From the sequence record OZ346151.1: a DNA stretch of 64,000 nucleotides; one strand, given 5' to 3'. A program made the translations under genes and the position numbers. Numbering within the stretch: the first letter of the stretch is position 1; every line of letters begins with the position of its first letter. The stretch is from a phage. The notes beneath the pieces are model-generated. The model worked only from the letters and a program-made list of their open reading frames with translations, was not told the origin of the DNA and ran no database searches. This document shows, one piece after another, positions 4,790-64,000 of this stretch.

Positions 4790-5143
4790 GATGAGTACCA
4801 ACTTCAAGTCCCTGACACACCGAAGTATAAGACTGTGTACACCTTCGACACAATCGAAGAACTGGAAGCATTTAAGGCAGAGCAGGAGGCCAAACTTCAT
4901 GTGTTCGACGGTCATAAGTACAAAAAGGCACGCAAGGATGAGGACGGAAACGAAGTGGTTGACAGAGACGGAAACACGGTGTACGATCCTATCCTGAACG
5001 ATGACGGAAAGCTTGAACTTATCTGGAGCCCTGTGGGTGAAATGGTGGTGCATTGCTTCTGGCAAGCTTCTAAAATGATGGGCGTCCCGTTCCAGATCAC
5101 GGGTGAATACCTGTGTGGTCGTAATTGGGGTGATTGTCACTAA
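4790..5143 (+). CDS. DNA polymerase, family A, exon 2 (motif C and C-terminus)
   Basis: Begins DEYQLQV; ends GRNWGDCH, resembling the T7 DNA polymerase C-terminus as remembered. Confidence 0.7.
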   Translation, partial: DEYQLQVPDTPKYKTVYTFDTIEELEAFKAEQEAKLHVFDGHKYKKARKDEDGNEVVDRDGNTVYDPILNDDGKLELIWSPVGEMVVHCFWQASKMMGVPFQITGEYLCGRNWGDCH

Positions 5144-5192
5144 TGTAAACTATCAACACATGGAAGTGTTGTTGAGCAAAGAGGAGACTTTT

Positions 5193-59343: not shown

Positions 59344-59694
59344 TCAGTAGATGTTTTGTTTAATCTCTATTCCAAACTTCTTGAATGAGTCAGCAGCAAG
59401 CATAAATTTACGAGCTGCCGATGGATTAGAAGTATGCACGAAAATAATCACGTTGTCAATAAGTGGTGGCTTTCCGAATACAAGTTTCTCCTCTAGCGCA
59501 GAGAAGCAGTCGTACCCTTCAAGCACTTCACCTAGATCATTGTCAAAATACCACTCAGATACGCGTCTGTAGAGCTTTCTCTTATCATTAAGAAAATCCA
59601 TAAACTCAGAAGAATTCTTTAGCCACAGAGCGTCTGGGAGTCCATAATCTGACGGATCTCTAAAATCATCAAGCCACACAATCCACTTCTTCAT
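59344..59694 (-). CDS. hypothetical protein
   Basis: Strand-consistent ORF. Confidence 0.5.
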   Translation of the reverse strand: MKKWIVWLDDFRDPSDYGLPDALWLKNSSEFMDFLNDKRKLYRRVSEWYFDNDLGEVLEGYDCFSALEEKLVFGKPPLIDNVIIFVHTSNPSAARKFMLAADSFKKFGIEIKQNIY

Positions 59695-60626
59695 TGCATA
59701 TAGTCCTCGTTGTGGAAATAGTAGTCCAGTATCTCACGACGCTCCTGCTCTAATAAGCAATTCCACACATCTTCTGTATAGTTGCTACGAATAAATTTTA
59801 CCATACCGTAAAACTCTTCGTCAACACGTTTAAAGATATCATCATCCCAAATCTTCCAAGCTTTACCCCTCATTACTGCCTTCCGTGCCAGATAGTATGG
59901 AGACTTGATCTTCAGCTGCAGATCATAAGGGTAGTAAGGCTTACGAATCATATACCCTTCACCTCTTGTTTCTGCAGCTAATTCTTTTGCATAGCTGAAC
60001 GGAATTTCACGCACAGTGTTAGGACGTTTTGCACCAAGGTATTTGGCAATCCCATCTAAAGCTGCTTCTGGTAGCATTATTCCAGAATCATTATATCTGC
60101 AACCTATCAAATATGCGCCATGGTCTTCTTGAACAATATGCGGATCTGAAGGGTGACAAATTTCAAACATGAATGTCATGTTTTCATTGCCCATAACCTT
60201 CTTGATAAGATCTAAATTACCACATTGCTCTTGGATGGTTTCCTTTGCAAGGTTACAATATGGAGAATCAAGAGACCCGGTTGTTGAGAACAATAGGTCA
60301 CCTTTATGAGATGATACCACACCAAGGAATCCGTTCTTTTTCTCTACCGCAGTCACAAGCTTATTGTCAGGCAGGTTGGTGGAGTTTTCTCCCAAGTTAA
60401 ACACTTTTGTGAAGGGCCATGCCACAACATTTCCTTCATTACCTACAACAATGCCTCGGCACTCCAGTAAACGAGGGGACAAATGCCATAAATTGTTGTA
60501 AAATACTTTTCTAGCATATTTATAGATCTTTAACCCGAGATCTGGGTAATACCTACTGGTTACAAGACCTTTGTCAACTAGGTCGTCTGCATTAAAATAC
60601 TTCATTATATGTTCCTCATTTGTCAT
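59691..60626 (-). CDS. RNA ligase (T4 Rnl1-like)
   Basis: LLECRGIVVG resembles T4 Rnl1 ALECRGIMF; motif I EKKNGF (KxDG/KxNG); divergent from pnk. Confidence 0.7.
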   Translation of the reverse strand: MTNEEHIMKYFNADDLVDKGLVTSRYYPDLGLKIYKYARKVFYNNLWHLSPRLLECRGIVVGNEGNVVAWPFTKVFNLGENSTNLPDNKLVTAVEKKNGFLGVVSSHKGDLLFSTTGSLDSPYCNLAKETIQEQCGNLDLIKKVMGNENMTFMFEICHPSDPHIVQEDHGAYLIGCRYNDSGIMLPEAALDGIAKYLGAKRPNTVREIPFSYAKELAAETRGEGYMIRKPYYPYDLQLKIKSPYYLARKAVMRGKAWKIWDDDIFKRVDEEFYGMVKFIRSNYTEDVWNCLLEQERREILDYYFHNEDYMQ

Positions 60627-60669
60627 TTTGTCAGTCTATCCTGCCACACAAATAACCTAGTGTCAACAC

Positions 60670-60698
60670 TTGAAATTAACAAAACAGTTAGGTATACT
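60670..60698 (+). promoter_or_regulatory. sigma70-like promoter in divergent intergenic region
   Basis: TTGAAA, 17-bp spacer, TATACT. Confidence 0.5.
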
Positions 60699-60726
60699 AC
60701 CGTTGAAATTAAAACGGAGGGTCGCT

Positions 60727-61137
60727 ATGTCTAAAATGCTATATATCGTGCGTGGTCTACCAGGGTCTGGCAAATCAACACTGGCAAATGAGCTATCTTT
60801 AGAGGGTCTGTATCCACATTTTGAGAACGACATGTTCTGGTATGACGATGACGGCAATTACAACTGGGATGCAAGTAAAGTAACACTCGCAGCAAAATGG
60901 TGCAAAGATAACGTAGAAGATATGATGCGTATGGGATACGACCGTATCGTGGTAAGTAATACGTTTACAAAAGAAAAACATGTGCAGGAATATGTTGACA
61001 TGGCAATCACTCACGGGTATAGTTATACCGTGATCGTGGTTGAAAACCGCCACGGTAATAAAAGCATTCATGATGTTCCAGACAAGGTTGTGGATCGTAT
61101 GGAACGCCAGCTTAAAAACTGCATTAAACTTAAATGA
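60727..61137 (+). CDS. polynucleotide 5'-kinase (P-loop kinase, T4 Pnk kinase-domain-like)
   Basis: SD GGAGGG; Walker A GLPGSGKST; ~136 aa; next to RNA ligase and phosphatase. Confidence 0.65.
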   Translation: MSKMLYIVRGLPGSGKSTLANELSLEGLYPHFENDMFWYDDDGNYNWDASKVTLAAKWCKDNVEDMMRMGYDRIVVSNTFTKEKHVQEYVDMAITHGYSYTVIVVENRHGNKSIHDVPDKVVDRMERQLKNCIKLK

Positions 61138-61144
61138 GGAATGT

Positions 61145-61699
61145 ATGAAATACTTTGTAACAAGCGACACACACTTTCTCCACCAGCGGGTCATGGAGTT
61201 TGATTCATGTCAAAAACACAGATCTCAGTATGATCACAATCTTGACAGTATGAATGCAGGAATCATCGCCGAGTGGAACTCTGTTGTGTCACCTGCAGAC
61301 ACTGTGTTCCACTTGGGAGATATTGCGTGCACTAATGATAAGAATATCAACAACTTACTTCCAGATATTCTAAATATGTTGAACGGACATATTATTCTTG
61401 TTCGTGGCAACCATGACACAAGGACGACTGTCAGAATTATGAAAGAGTTCGGTCATGAGGTTGTAGATTATTACGAGCTTCGCCACAACAAGAATTTGAT
61501 CTGTATGAGCCATTACCAGTTTGCAAAGTGGAACAGAAAGCCTCACGGATCAGTCCAACTGTTCGGTCATGCTCACGGAACCACACAACAGTTGTTTGGC
61601 AGGCAGCTTGATGTCGGTTGGGATGTGTGGGGGAGACTCTTACCATTAGAAGAGGCATACCGTATTGCAATGAGTTTTGATATTGACAGCAGGGAGTAA
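61145..61699 (+). CDS. calcineurin-like metallophosphoesterase (putative 2',3'/3'-phosphatase)
   Basis: SD GAGGA; motifs SDTHF, GDIAC, GNHD, HAHG. Confidence 0.65.
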   Translation: MKYFVTSDTHFLHQRVMEFDSCQKHRSQYDHNLDSMNAGIIAEWNSVVSPADTVFHLGDIACTNDKNINNLLPDILNMLNGHIILVRGNHDTRTTVRIMKEFGHEVVDYYELRHNKNLICMSHYQFAKWNRKPHGSVQLFGHAHGTTQQLFGRQLDVGWDVWGRLLPLEEAYRIAMSFDIDSRE

Positions 61700-61746
61700 T
61701 CCCTGCTATTTTAAAGAAAATTGCCACACAAGGAGAATCAGGAGAT

Positions 61747-62097
61747 ATGAAAGATGGGGATAAGCTGCTATATCTTAAAGTCCCCCTTGAAATACTATCT
61801 ATGTCAAAAGTTTTGAATGACACAACTGGGGAGGTTGTTGTTCTTGACTTGTATGACAAGATCGTATACTGCTACCTGCACAACTGGTATAAGCTTGGAG
61901 GAAATTCACGCTTCACACCAAGCACAAGGAAAATTGCAGCAGATGTTGGGATAAAGAAAACAAAAGCAGCAGCGTGCGTTAAAACTTTAGAATGTGCAGG
62001 AGTGGTTGAAACATCCACACAAGGGAGAGGTAAAAGATGCACATTTTCCAAAGTTTTGCCACCAGAAGAAGTTATTCGGATGTCAACAACTGGTTAG
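61747..62097 (+). CDS. putative winged-helix DNA-binding protein (initiator or repressor)
   Basis: SD AGGAGA; wHTH-like segment RKIAADVGIKKTKAAACVKTLECAGVVE; followed directly by palindrome array. Confidence 0.5.
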   Translation: MKDGDKLLYLKVPLEILSMSKVLNDTTGEVVVLDLYDKIVYCYLHNWYKLGGNSRFTPSTRKIAADVGIKKTKAAACVKTLECAGVVETSTQGRGKRCTFSKVLPPEEVIRMSTTG

Positions 62098-62173
62098 ACC
62101 AGTAAAAACTTAAATATCTGTACTATAAGGATTCGTATGTTTTATGTTCGCCATGGAACGGATACTATTAACT

Positions 62174-62252
62174 GTCCGTGATACGGACACTACTGTCCGT
62201 CACGCGGACACATCTGCCCGTAATACGGACACTAACTGTCCGTGATACGGAC
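62174..62252. repeat. four phased 15-bp palindromes (iteron/operator array)
   Basis: GTCCGTGATACGGAC (62174), GTCCGTCACGCGGAC (62195), GCCCGTAATACGGAC (62216), GTCCGTGATACGGAC (62238); spacing 21-22 bp. Confidence 0.75.
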
Positions 62253-62261
62253 ACATAAAGA

Positions 62262-62385
62262 ATATAACTAAAATAACTAAATAATAAAAAATAAAAGATC
62301 TAGTACTTATGGTACTAAGTACATATACTTAACTTATGTAGAATATACTAGATCCTAAGTACCATGTTTTAAATTTATTACTTAC
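62262..62385. repeat. AT-rich region with large imperfect palindrome
   Basis: AGATCTAGTACTTATGGTACTAAGTAC...TACTAGATCCTAAGTACCATG inverted symmetry. Confidence 0.55.
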
Positions 62386-62660
62386 TATGGGCAGTGTCGG
62401 CCCTTCATTGGCACTCGCCTACGAGGGGGCGAGATGCCGGGCCTCCTTGGCGCACACAATAACAGAAGTTCATACATGCAGGTCTGTTAACATGTGTGGG
62501 AGCGAAGCGATAGCGCAGGCCAAAGGCCGAGCACTGATGTGGACCACCGACGAAAGCTTGCCAGCGCCGTAAGGAGTCGGTTGAGAGTCTCCCGCGCGAG
62601 CTTGGATGAAGTTTATGTGTGGAAACTGACAAGAAGGCCCCTAAATCGCTCCACAGCTAT
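62386..62660 (+). ncRNA. candidate structured non-coding RNA (GC-rich, ORF-poor)
   Basis: Visibly GC-richer than flanks; several short stems (e.g. CTCGCC...GGCGAG); no RBS-supported ORF; strand undetermined. Confidence 0.3.
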
Positions 62661-62758
62661 ATAAACTATACCAGGTAATGCAATCGCACCAGTTTGATAG
62701 AAAAGCTCGTTACAAAGCGATACAGTGAGTTTTTCTATAACTTGAAGAGGAGGCAGCT

Positions 62759-63337
62759 ATGGGTTCACGCAAAGATGACCGTGAAAAGATTGCAAAACGT
62801 TATCAGAATGAAGAACAGATGGAGAAAACTTTCAAGTGGAAGCCAGGTTTCCAGCGTAATCATTCTAACGCTCGTGATCGTAAGCATCCGGATAAGTGGC
62901 TAACACCGCCAAATGATGGCATGCAGGTTGGGGATGAGAAGGAGATGTCGCCTGGAAAAGATGGCAACTACATTCGCACTAAGGACGCTGGTCCAAAGGA
63001 TGACAGCTATCTTGTAGATAAGGTTCTTGATGGTATCAATGTAGATGTTGACACTGCACGAAACCTTTTTCTTGGGTGGTATCGCACAGGTTTTTTCGAC
63101 ATCAAGGCTATTCGTCGTGTTTGTGATATTAAAAAGTCTGCATATGATGACGACTCGTTACATCGCACCCTGAGACAATATTCAGAAAGATATGGTCATC
63201 CGGTTATCACTCTTGACGATGTTAACGAAGTGATGTATCATGCAGAGGTTGTTGCAGGAAGATTCGGTGATGCATATCTTGATATCCTTTCTGCAAAGGA
63301 TGAGGTAATGTTAAATAAGATTTACTATGAACGCTGA
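62759..63337 (+). CDS. hypothetical protein
   Basis: SD GAAGAGGAGG before ATG. Confidence 0.55.
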   Translation: MGSRKDDREKIAKRYQNEEQMEKTFKWKPGFQRNHSNARDRKHPDKWLTPPNDGMQVGDEKEMSPGKDGNYIRTKDAGPKDDSYLVDKVLDGINVDVDTARNLFLGWYRTGFFDIKAIRRVCDIKKSAYDDDSLHRTLRQYSERYGHPVITLDDVNEVMYHAEVVAGRFGDAYLDILSAKDEVMLNKIYYER

Positions 63338-63536
63338 GGAGCGCTTAATGAACAACCCGGTAGCAAAGAACTGTAATAAGTTCAACAAGTCTGCAATTCA
63401 CACTGACAGGAAAAAGAGCTGGTCTCCTGACATTGACGAGGAGCTTGAGAGTTACTTTGAAGACCTGGTCACTAATGCAGATGAGGTTGCGATTAAAGAA
63501 TACGCAGACAGGAAGGATAAGGCCGGAATCTGTTGA
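63327..63536 (+). CDS. hypothetical protein
   Basis: Overlapping start (coupled). Confidence 0.45.
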   Translation: MNAEERLMNNPVAKNCNKFNKSAIHTDRKKSWSPDIDEELESYFEDLVTNADEVAIKEYADRKDKAGIC

Positions 63537-63612
63537 CAAAAATAGTGTTACCTGATAAGATCTGCAATATGATGTGATGCAATTTTAACTTACGAGGTCT
63601 ACAGGTAATGCT

Positions 63613-63855
63613 ATGTTTAAGGTTAAGCTCGTTTTTCGTTCCATGAATGAGGATTATTTAGAAGATGAAGGTGAATTTCGTGCACTGGATGATGCAATAG
63701 ATTTTGCCAACGACTTAGCTTGTATGAATACGGGTTATGGGCTATGCTGTTGGGATGGTGGTGTTCAGATCGGTGATAGCAAGATCTTCTACTTCTACCC
63801 TGAACCTGATAACAAACAAATTAAGTATGTTTTATTTATTTGTGCTTTACAATGA
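63613..63855 (+). CDS. hypothetical protein
   Basis: Strand-consistent ORF. Confidence 0.45.
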   Translation: MFKVKLVFRSMNEDYLEDEGEFRALDDAIDFANDLACMNTGYGLCCWDGGVQIGDSKIFYFYPEPDNKQIKYVLFICALQ

Positions 63856-64000
63856 GGTTGTTTTCGTGTATCATGATGAATATCCAATTTAAAGATGAAT
63901 TTGATGGCTTTATCTCCGGATGCTTTGAAACAGGGTTCGGAGAAGGCTGAGTTCCCCTTAGAGGGCTTGATAGTGCACCACACTTAAAATGGTAGGGGCA

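Follow-up and report, generated by a model that had tools for sequence, protein, structure and literature searches.

Positions 62386 to 62660 of a 64,000-nucleotide (nt) stretch of phage DNA (OZ346151.1; the whole stretch is referred to here as the window) hold a real, noncoding, conserved folded element of the + strand. The element is a candidate cis-acting signal shared by phages and plasmids rather than ordinary spacer. Tentatively, and with somewhat less than even confidence, we favor the view that it forms a conserved, folded arm belonging to a replication origin of the iteron (lambda-O-like) type and acts in cis, with an RNA form preferred over a DNA form.

Distribution of the element

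Region 62100 to 62760 matched 119 phage records at ≥90% identity, all of them Vequintavirus (rV5-like Escherichia coli myoviruses), and the element was present in every one (87.6 to 99.7% identity). Outside Vequintavirus, blastn recovered it only from unannotated DNA of ~13-kb nonmobilizable E. coli plasmids (NZ_CP020521.1, NZ_CP035869.1, CP148565.1, NZ_CP178698.1, and the 39.6-kb trimer NZ_CP043822.1). When a whole plasmid was compared with 50,697 phage records, the element was the sole match, in Vequintavirus only, and it was also the only significant match between plasmid and window. Altogether, 18 distinct copies from plasmids and 13 variants from phages were collected. Searches with a core covariance model found exactly one copy per replicon, with a match in the window at 62491 to 62605 (138.8 bits; E = 4.6e-32). 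Scans for exact patterns in viral, genome, and metagenome collections yielded more phage and plasmid copies and no third kind of host: GAAAGCTTGCCAGCGCCG had one true phage match and one chance match inside a gene among viral contigs, AAGCTTGCCAGCGCCGNAAGG had nine chance matches among genome contigs (in GC-rich genomes such as Collinsella), and metagenome contigs gave further Vequintavirus and plasmid copies and otherwise chance matches. A candidate homologue, L028, scored 28 bits with the covariance model but was rejected, as it lies inside a 693-amino-acid (aa) open reading frame (ORF). The known range of the element is very narrow, E. coli only.

A search of 61000 to 64000 with Rfam 15 (4,227 models; E ≤ 1), one of the checks proposed in a preliminary description of the sequence, returned only rli43, at 22.5 bits against a gathering threshold of 100 and over the AT-rich region to the left of the element. 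The same scan of two whole plasmids gave only a chance match to an internal ribosome entry site, and a scan of the window for tRNA and transfer-messenger RNA genes found none. The element thus represents a structured family that is new and has no Rfam entry.

Secondary structure and compensatory changes

On the + strand, the element opens with a 5' hairpin (62394 to 62446) made of P1 (62399 to 62403 with 62439 to 62443), P1a (62410 to 62413 with 62435 to 62438), and P1b (62414 to 62419 with 62428 to 62433). The stretch from 62399 to 62443 is a minimum-free-energy fold under both RNA and DNA parameters (folding z of -2.5 to -3.5), which gives substance to the short complementary stretches remarked on in the preliminary description. 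Relative to plasmid NZ_CP020521.1, the hairpin has two compensatory changes from G-C to U-A; the first pairwise alignment with the plasmid showed CUCGCC/GGCGAG becoming CUCUCC/GGAGAG and GGCA/UGCC becoming GUCA/UGAC. A variable hairpin module follows (62450 to 62498), pairing CACACA (62453 to 62458) with UGUGUG (62493 to 62498) and AACAGA (62461 to 62466) with UCUGUU (62483 to 62488). Part of this module is dispensable, since Murica and O157 typing phage 5 lack 18 nt of it (62456 to 62473). Plasmid copies carry zero to three optional hairpin modules, each with UGUGUGG(G) at its end.

The conserved multibranch core (62491 to 62605) was recognized by the covariance-model match, compensatory changes, and the RNA fold. 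It is closed by helix A, which pairs UGUGUGGGAG (62493 to 62502) with CUCCCGCGCG (62589 to 62598) and includes three G.U pairs. Within it lie a hairpin, GGCC-AAA-GGCC (62518 to 62528), the motif AUGUGGA (62537 to 62543), and helix C (ACCGAC at 62546 to 62551 with GUCGGU at 62576 to 62581). Helix C is capped by an invariant 24-nt loop (62552 to 62575), in which RNAalifold analysis of phage and plasmid cores found GCU-UGCC-AGC and CC-GNAA-GG, with N being U or G; the latter is the GNRA hairpin CC-GUAA-GG of the window (62567 to 62574). The 3' tail (62606 to 62646) contains a third UGUGUGG (62616 to 62622) and the conserved sequence GGCCCCUAAAU (62636 to 62646), whose CCUAAAU is common to all plasmid copies.

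In the core alignment (RNAalifold), 97% of cells were paired, compared with 31 to 45% when partners were slid. Helix C was 100% paired, with both sides changed in three of its six pairs (ACCGAC/GUCGGU in the phage and GCUGCC/GGCAGC in the plasmid, by pairwise alignment). A manual table gave at least nine compensatory double changes and no disruptions in these helices: two in the 5' hairpin, three in helix C, three in module M3 (in the L051 variant), and one in the plasmid 5' domain (GUGGG/CCCAC to GUGGA/UCCAC). These changes among phage and plasmid copies support the conserved secondary structure that the preliminary description had suspected.

Five plasmid cores (L043, L044, L045, L050, and L051), referred to as type II, keep the core ends and AUGUGGA and replace helix C with a third, unrelated 8-bp version (GUCCGGAU/AUCCGGAC) that has a different loop. 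Folded alone, the type II core takes the same multibranch topology despite its different sequence (z = -4.3; 0 of 200 shuffles). The phage core is a mosaic, with a 5' part like type II and a helix C and loop like type I. Type II cores are matched only weakly by the covariance model (14.6 to 16.9 bits) and were misaligned by MAFFT; the counts on A7 include chance matches and were not relied on. The weight of the covariation is limited by a narrow phylogenetic spread and, since no distant homologues were found, it rests on three lineages (phage, type I, and type II).

Two further pairings were rejected. The long-range pair GGAGCGA/UCGCUCC of the full-length minimum-free-energy fold has a 3' partner that varies without compensation, and the pairing of GGAC (62541 to 62544) with GUCU (62587 to 62590) is broken in 4 of 11 lineages. 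Folding z scores of the whole element were weak (-2.0 on the + strand and -1.5 on the - strand) and were not used as evidence; the case therefore rests on comparative evidence and not on thermodynamics.

Strand and nature of the fold

One-sided changes in the helices yield G.U pairs on the + strand. In helix C, A-U has become G.U in Aya and an IMG/VR phage, and in helix A, G-C has become G.U in the IMG/VR phage and in L050 and L051. The same changes would read as A.C on the - strand, and there were no A.C cells save two from an alignment shift. The core fold forms on the + strand and not on the - strand under either RNA or DNA parameters, and the RNA minimum-free-energy fold is also the centroid. 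Loops include a GNRA loop with a varying N (GUAA or GGAA) and, in one plasmid module, cUUCGg. With DNA parameters, the folding z of the core is ~0, though the minimum-free-energy structure of the + strand is the same multibranch fold.

Other signals may be layered on the fold at the level of DNA, namely, the UGUGUGG repeats, alternating purine-pyrimidine tracts, and a near-palindromic site. The phage element has four alternating purine-pyrimidine runs of ≥8 nt, against 1.1 expected (P = 0.02). The near-palindromic site, CAGGTAATGCAATCGCAC (62672 to 62689; no strand), was read from the sequence 3' of the phage element, and plasmid copies carry it inverted (GTGCAATTGCATTACCTG) downstream of theirs (for example, at about 1385 to 1402 in L004). 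This flip of orientation argues for a protein site in double-stranded DNA rather than for RNA, and the orientation-independent conservation of the site suggests a DNA-binding protein. Just 3' of CCCGCGCG, plasmid copies such as L008, L007, and L043 contain perfect alternating purine-pyrimidine tracts of 14 to 21 nt (e.g., GTGCACGCACACATATATA). The lengths of (CA)n/(AT)n differ among plasmid copies, and such tracts are prone to Z-DNA, cruciforms, and slippage.

Base composition and coding potential

Intervals of both 200 and 275 nt place the highest GC content in all 64 kb at the element, within which 62394 to 62646 stands out as the GC-richest stretch of the window. The 200-nt maximum of 0.595, at position 62401, is ~4.4 standard deviations above the mean of the window (0.428; standard deviation, 0.038), so the GC richness that the preliminary description had judged by eye is borne out by computation. 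GC content is 0.564 across 62386 to 62660 and 0.198 in the left flank (62255 to 62385). The neighbors are also as that description had them, with an AT-rich palindrome to the left and, to the right, the Shine-Dalgarno sequence GAGGAGG (62746 to 62752) of the next gene, which starts at ATG 62759 on the + strand and encodes 192 aa.

Two ORFs named in the preliminary description are present (62387 to 62572, +, 61 aa; 62405 to 62632, -, 75 aa), as is a third (62494 to 62664, +, 56 aa). A Pfam search of all three gave no match. Open frames differ from strain to strain: two strains carry 18-nt and 3-nt deletions, and the window has one extra G relative to every other phage copy (the loop of the 5' hairpin reads GGGGG, at 62425 to 62429, and not GGGG). 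The stretch is noncoding, as had been supposed, and the notion that one of these small ORFs is a real gene deserves next to no credence. Some records do annotate hypothetical proteins here, and a + frame of ~57 codons is open in most phage variants, but chance open frames are expected at 59% GC, every frame is broken in plasmid copies by modules of 43 to 90 nt, stem changes compensate at the level of RNA and are not synonymous, and a 1-nt indel is enough to set the open frames of the window apart from those of other strains. The difference in G-run length is either homopolymer slippage or a sequencing error; C/G runs in the plasmid 5' domains vary too.

Origin-like context

The context that proved decisive for interpretation, an initiator gene with four iterons and an AT-rich stretch, was absent from the preliminary description. 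On the + strand, an initiator-like gene is followed by four phased iterons, then by a ~130-bp stretch of 20% GC, and then by the folded GC-rich element. The gene (61747 to 62097, +) encodes a 116-aa winged-helix protein (lambda-O-like/HTH_36) recognized from Pfam, PHROG, and annotation. It falls just under the Pfam cutoffs (HTH_36, 24.5 bits against 25; DUF6945, 27.4 bits against 28), is placed in PHROG "replication initiation protein" families 12838, 8102, and 428, and is annotated as a replication initiation protein in the FV3 and V5 records and also as a putative transcriptional regulator in relatives. The protein occurs in no phage records beyond these 119, so that no comparison with other genera of the Vequintavirinae was available. 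The iterons (62169 to 62254) are 21 to 22 bp long, have a spacing of 21/21/22, and each contain the internal palindrome TGTCCGTnnnACGGACA. The AT-rich stretch (62255 to 62385) includes a large imperfect palindrome and is a candidate DNA unwinding element. The minimum of the cumulative GC skew, where transcription also diverges, lies 1.5 kb upstream.

In the plasmids, too, each copy comes after an array of iterons and a conserved AT-rich box, CTAATAGATAAAGTAATAGA. Plasmid iterons and initiators differ greatly from those of the phage and also from one another. Plasmid iterons are of at least five types, and the type broadly follows the initiator cluster: initiators are 94% identical between L039 and L047, 88 to 95% among L040, L043, L044, and L045, and 99 to 100% among L008, L048, L049, and L054, with L030 as an exception. 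Plasmid proteins of 128 aa and of 288 to 306 aa match the same PHROG initiator families (O-like included), and those of 128 and 298 aa also match HTH_36. A divergent 137-kb phage contig, L006 (IMGVR_UViG_3300010279_000001; 1960 to 2800, -), also has iterons upstream of its copy. Its initiator (143 aa) is 28% identical to that of the phage studied here, and its iterons (ATCTGATRCAAATATGTATC) and AT-rich stretch are its own. Nucleotide identity is 48% across the initiator, iteron, and AT-rich block, 92% and 85% in the flanks, and 82.5% in the element, which puts the boundary of the swapped cassette at the 5' end of the element. This block looks like a swap of an origin-specificity cassette.

The locus thus has the features of an iteron-type (lambda-O-like) origin, namely, phased repeats, an adjacent AT-rich stretch, and an initiator that varies with the iterons. 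The rV5 genome paper could not define a replication origin (PMC3606486).

Proposed mechanism and alternative explanations

Since initiators and iterons appear exchangeable and the element is retained, it probably contacts a factor common to all of these replicons. That factor could come from the host or be the chain-starting machinery of rV5-like phages. The nearest + strand promoter upstream of the element is a sigma-70-like sequence, TTGACA-18-TATTTT with TG before the -10 hexamer (61683 to 61712), and no terminator-like site was found between it and 63000. Transcription from 61683, unterminated before 62759, would cross the iterons and the AT-rich stretch, and a structured + strand RNA would arise immediately downstream of the region due to melt. 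The analogy is with activation by transcription as in ori-lambda, T4 oriF/oriE, the T7 primary origin, and ColE1 RNA II: the RNA, stable and GC-rich, would form an R-loop or a primer and in that way activate or prime the first DNA chain. Plasmids would have the element in order for their origins to be fired by this same machinery. It is the lack of a terminator between 61683 and the element that leads us to favor RNA made by read-through.

Several observations weigh against this account. There is no promoter directly upstream of the phage element; Table S4 of the rV5 paper lists no promoter in the interval, and no terminator either (PMC3606486). The rV5 late-promoter motif TGGTAAAATA (PMC3606486) has no clear occurrence upstream of the element, and a literature search found no transcriptome. 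In plasmid L040, a good terminator (5127 to 5147) is followed by 1.6 kb without a sigma-70-like + strand promoter before the element, which leaves plasmid transcription unproven and favors single-stranded DNA as the folded molecule. The UGUGUG/CGCGCG part of helix A never varies and has complementarity as its only support, and UGUGUGG occurs two to five times per element whatever its partner, so that it looks like a sequence motif and not a helix strand. The small number of independent lineages behind the covariation counts here as well, as does the stability in DNA of GNRA- and GNA-type loops such as GCGAAGC (62502 to 62508). Origin activity itself is something we infer.

The main alternative, possible though on the unlikely side, is that the same fold acts in the displaced + DNA strand as a single-strand initiation (ssi) signal, an entry site for primosome or primase. 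In this view, the initiator would melt the AT-rich stretch and the helicase would unwind rightwards, leaving the + strand as lagging-strand template; the GC-rich hairpins would resist single-stranded DNA-binding protein, and a primer made there would become the first leftward leading strand. An ssi signal needs no promoter, which fits the promoter-less context in plasmid and phage, and the geometry is right, on the + strand and immediately to the right of the AT-rich stretch. The + strand core takes the same multibranch minimum-free-energy fold with DNA parameters and the - strand does not. GCGAAGC and C-GNA-G mini-hairpins are very stable in DNA, and G4-type signals are a precedent for sharing between phages and plasmids. 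Yet helix A would need three G.T pairs in 10 bp, which are weak in DNA, and the DNA folding z of the core gives no support; the cUUCGg loop and the GNRA loop with neutral variation at N are more typical of RNA, and known signals are compact (~70 to 140 nt), compared with 250 to 450 nt and zero to three optional modules here. A trans-acting noncoding RNA is distinctly unlikely. Such an RNA might be a protein sponge or serve crosstalk, immunity, or copy control between phage and satellite plasmids; its hairpins would be separated by single-stranded UGUGUGG(G)/AUGUGGA repeats exposed for binding, and CCCGCGCG would be an internal complementary sequence comparable to seqA, seqB, and seqC of P4 CI RNA. 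Consistent with this are the modular build, with two to five UGUGUGG at module boundaries, invariant whatever adjoins them; the invariant 24-nt loop holding AAGGAG(G) above a stem that covaries; the RNA-type loops; and the sharing of the element by phage and plasmids otherwise without common DNA. No promoter or terminator marks off a gene, though, the constant adjacency and fixed orientation beside iterons would go unexplained, type II plasmid cores do without the supposedly invariant loop, and there is no match to C4/CI, CsrB, or another Rfam family.

Recognition as double-stranded DNA, either as a pac site for the small terminase or as an array of protein boxes with TGTGTGG as the boxes, is improbable. 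The plasmids have no annotated terminase or portal and so must borrow packaging, for which the element, as the only DNA they share with any phage record, could have been copied; the repeated boxes have the same orientation, and they are accompanied by the alternating purine-pyrimidine tracts and the flipped palindromic site (62672 to 62689). Against this stand the compensatory intrastrand changes and the G.U asymmetry, unexpected for double-stranded sites, a very variable box spacing (45 to 120 bp), the tie of the element to iterons and initiators with no terminase gene nearby in the window, and the abundance of TGTGTGG window-wide (29 copies against 9.6 expected), which is not specific to this region. 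The preliminary description offered a regulatory RNA or a DNA structural element, an open-ended pair that brackets the result, together with a long structured leader or riboswitch, which does not fit. It is very improbable that the element regulates the 192-aa gene at 62759 as a structured 5' leader or in the manner of a riboswitch. The element is on the same strand as that gene, is probably cotranscribed with it in the absence of a terminator between them, and is conserved together with the downstream 250 nt. But ~110 nt of unrelated sequence precede the Shine-Dalgarno sequence, without terminator or expression platform; the plasmid element is followed by ~300 nt with a strong sigma-70 promoter (TTGACA-17-TAAGAT) before the next ORFs, whose proteins are unrelated to those of the phage; Rfam gave no riboswitch match; and optional modules with two alternative cores are unlike a ligand pocket. 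We rejected a riboswitch on the missing terminator, the gap, and the intervening plasmid promoter.

Plasmids as candidate satellites

The plasmid loci L007, L039, L040, and L042 to L054 are a tight family of ~13-kb circular E. coli replicons (e.g., NZ_CP020521.1, 13,689 bp). Their genes include those for a major capsid protein, a tape measure protein, a Dit-like "baseplate" (tail-tube initiator) protein, O-like initiators, and an HTH_7 protein; no terminase or portal is annotated, and ~2.3 kb of their DNA is noncoding. The capsid family is tight, with 18 clusters at ≥82% identity, all from E. coli contigs of 13.2 to 14.3 kb; the capsid cluster has 441 member sequences. Almost no capsid relatives were found in phages, and a search of viral contigs with the capsid protein found nothing. 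The tail proteins point to rV5-like phages: the Dit-like protein shares 50% identity with the tail-tube initiator of Vequintavirus (E = 1e-55), and the plasmid tape measure finds its best matches among the tape measures of that genus (26%; E = 5e-12). NZ_CP043822.1 (L038; 39,610 bp) is a head-to-tail trimer of the 13-kb element in which one monomer is degraded (its capsid and baseplate genes are truncated, and its tape measure is shorter); either an assembly artifact or real multimerization may account for this.

Judging from these genes, the plasmids appear to be undescribed extrachromosomal satellites of rV5-like phages, a helper relationship that we infer; no described satellite of this kind was found in the literature. 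A fuller version, in which the plasmids are Vequintavirus satellites and the element is their handle, as a modular RNA or single-stranded DNA arm, into the chain-starting or replisome-loading machinery of the helper, is unlikely. If it held, infection by the helper would fire the origin of the satellite or mark the satellite for packaging, and each satellite would rely on its own initiator and iterons to maintain itself quietly as a plasmid. The two core types (I and II) would then differ in specificity, and the mosaic core of the phage would record recombination between helper and satellite.

Comparison with known systems

In layout, the locus seems closest to lambda-type origins; functionally, by analogy, it may be closest to ssi signals or origin transcripts. 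Ori-lambda combines an O-like initiator, four dyad-symmetric iterons, an AT-rich stretch, and a palindrome on the far side, and it is activated by transcription. The locus resembles it in the O-like winged-helix initiator, four phased palindromic iterons, the adjacent AT-rich stretch followed by hairpin-forming sequence, and probable read-through transcription. It differs in that the candidate origin lies downstream of, and not inside, the gene for a 116-aa initiator that has a DNA-binding domain only, and in that the arm is ~250 nt, modular, and covarying, whereas that of lambda is a 28-bp palindrome. Among ssi signals, the R1 G-site, RSF1010 ssiA/ssiB, the G4 complementary-strand origin, and ColE1 pas are also strand-specific GC-rich hairpins beside an unwinding region and are common to E. 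coli phages and plasmids, but the element is much longer, modular, and equipped with RNA-type loops and a G.U-rich closing helix.

Origin transcripts (ColE1 RNA II, T4 oriF/oriG/oriE, and the T7 primary origin) likewise place a folded transcript or R-loop beside an unwinding element, and T4 oriE combines iterons, Rep proteins, and a transcript. Here, by comparison, neither a dedicated promoter nor an antisense partner or RNase H site is identifiable. ColE1 has neither initiator nor iterons, whereas the element has both beside it. A ColE1-type primer RNA (RNA II) was rejected on the presence of initiator and iterons and the absence of a dedicated promoter; these departures make it less likely that the element is an RNA II, not that it works like one. 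With the cis signals of satellites (P4 cos, from P2; PLE RepA/ori with the ICP1 replisome), the case has in common a small initiator/iteron element that shares a short noncoding signal with a large lytic phage, and tail proteins that resemble those of the phage. Unlike P4 cos, the signal is a structured element beside an origin, and the helper is putative. ROOL, GOLLD, and PAGEV of Rfam are similarly intergenic in phages or plasmids, near tRNA genes, and ornate in their many hairpins, but the element has no Rfam match and an E. coli-only range.

Other features of the locus

In annotated relatives, the + strand order is polynucleotide kinase, phosphoesterase, the 116-aa protein, ~660 bp without genes, the 192-aa hypothetical protein, and small ORFs; a tRNA cluster follows ~2.5 kb downstream of the origin-like module, past the end of the window. 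Directly upstream of the module, 59691 to 61699 holds an RNA-repair-type set: an RNA ligase (-), a polynucleotide kinase/phosphatase, and a metallophosphoesterase (both +). The 119 matches to 62100 to 62760 include 18 to 19 unannotated GenBank records named "Campylobacter phage" (MG0656xx), which are ~98 to 99% identical to E. coli Vequintavirus there; the host label looks doubtful. At 62571 to 62583, the invariant loop contains the Shine-Dalgarno-like AAGGAG (AAGGAGG in plasmids), with a UUG 5 nt on in the phage that opens a 27-codon frame; this frame is not kept in plasmids. Elsewhere in the window, five TGTGTGG copies (22086, 22489, 22891, 23305, and 23646; +) recur at ~400-bp spacing, with no tandem repeat detected; this cluster at 22 to 23.7 kb is probably a diverged repeated protein domain.

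Several motifs were considered on visual inspection and dropped, being either untestable or no more than chance would give: DnaA boxes (TGTGGA...), Chi, KOPS (GGGGAGGG), XerCD, and plasmid single-strand origin (sso) CS-6. T7-type primase sites (GTGTC/GGGTC) were likewise dropped, GTC counts being as expected. A type I-E CRISPR (clustered regularly interspaced short palindromic repeats) repeat was set aside, as GAGTTCCCCGCGCCAGC agrees with GAGTCTCCCGCGCGAGC at 14 of 17 positions but without the 3' half of the stem. A resemblance of CCGGAAGGAGGCAGC to domain IV of signal recognition particle RNA occurs in plasmids only; the phage has a covarying helix there.

Significance

As far as comparison of sequences goes, the element is a new family in both sequence and structure and part of a putative origin of unusual design. 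Phages of the rV5 type have been isolated widely and serve in typing and biocontrol. The locus is a concrete candidate for their origin. Even a conservative reading shows a design in which initiator/iteron cassettes are swapped while a structured arm is kept. The element may also be the physical link in a new helper-satellite system of E. coli, which, if true, would allow study of how a satellite borrows the replication or packaging of a lytic phage.

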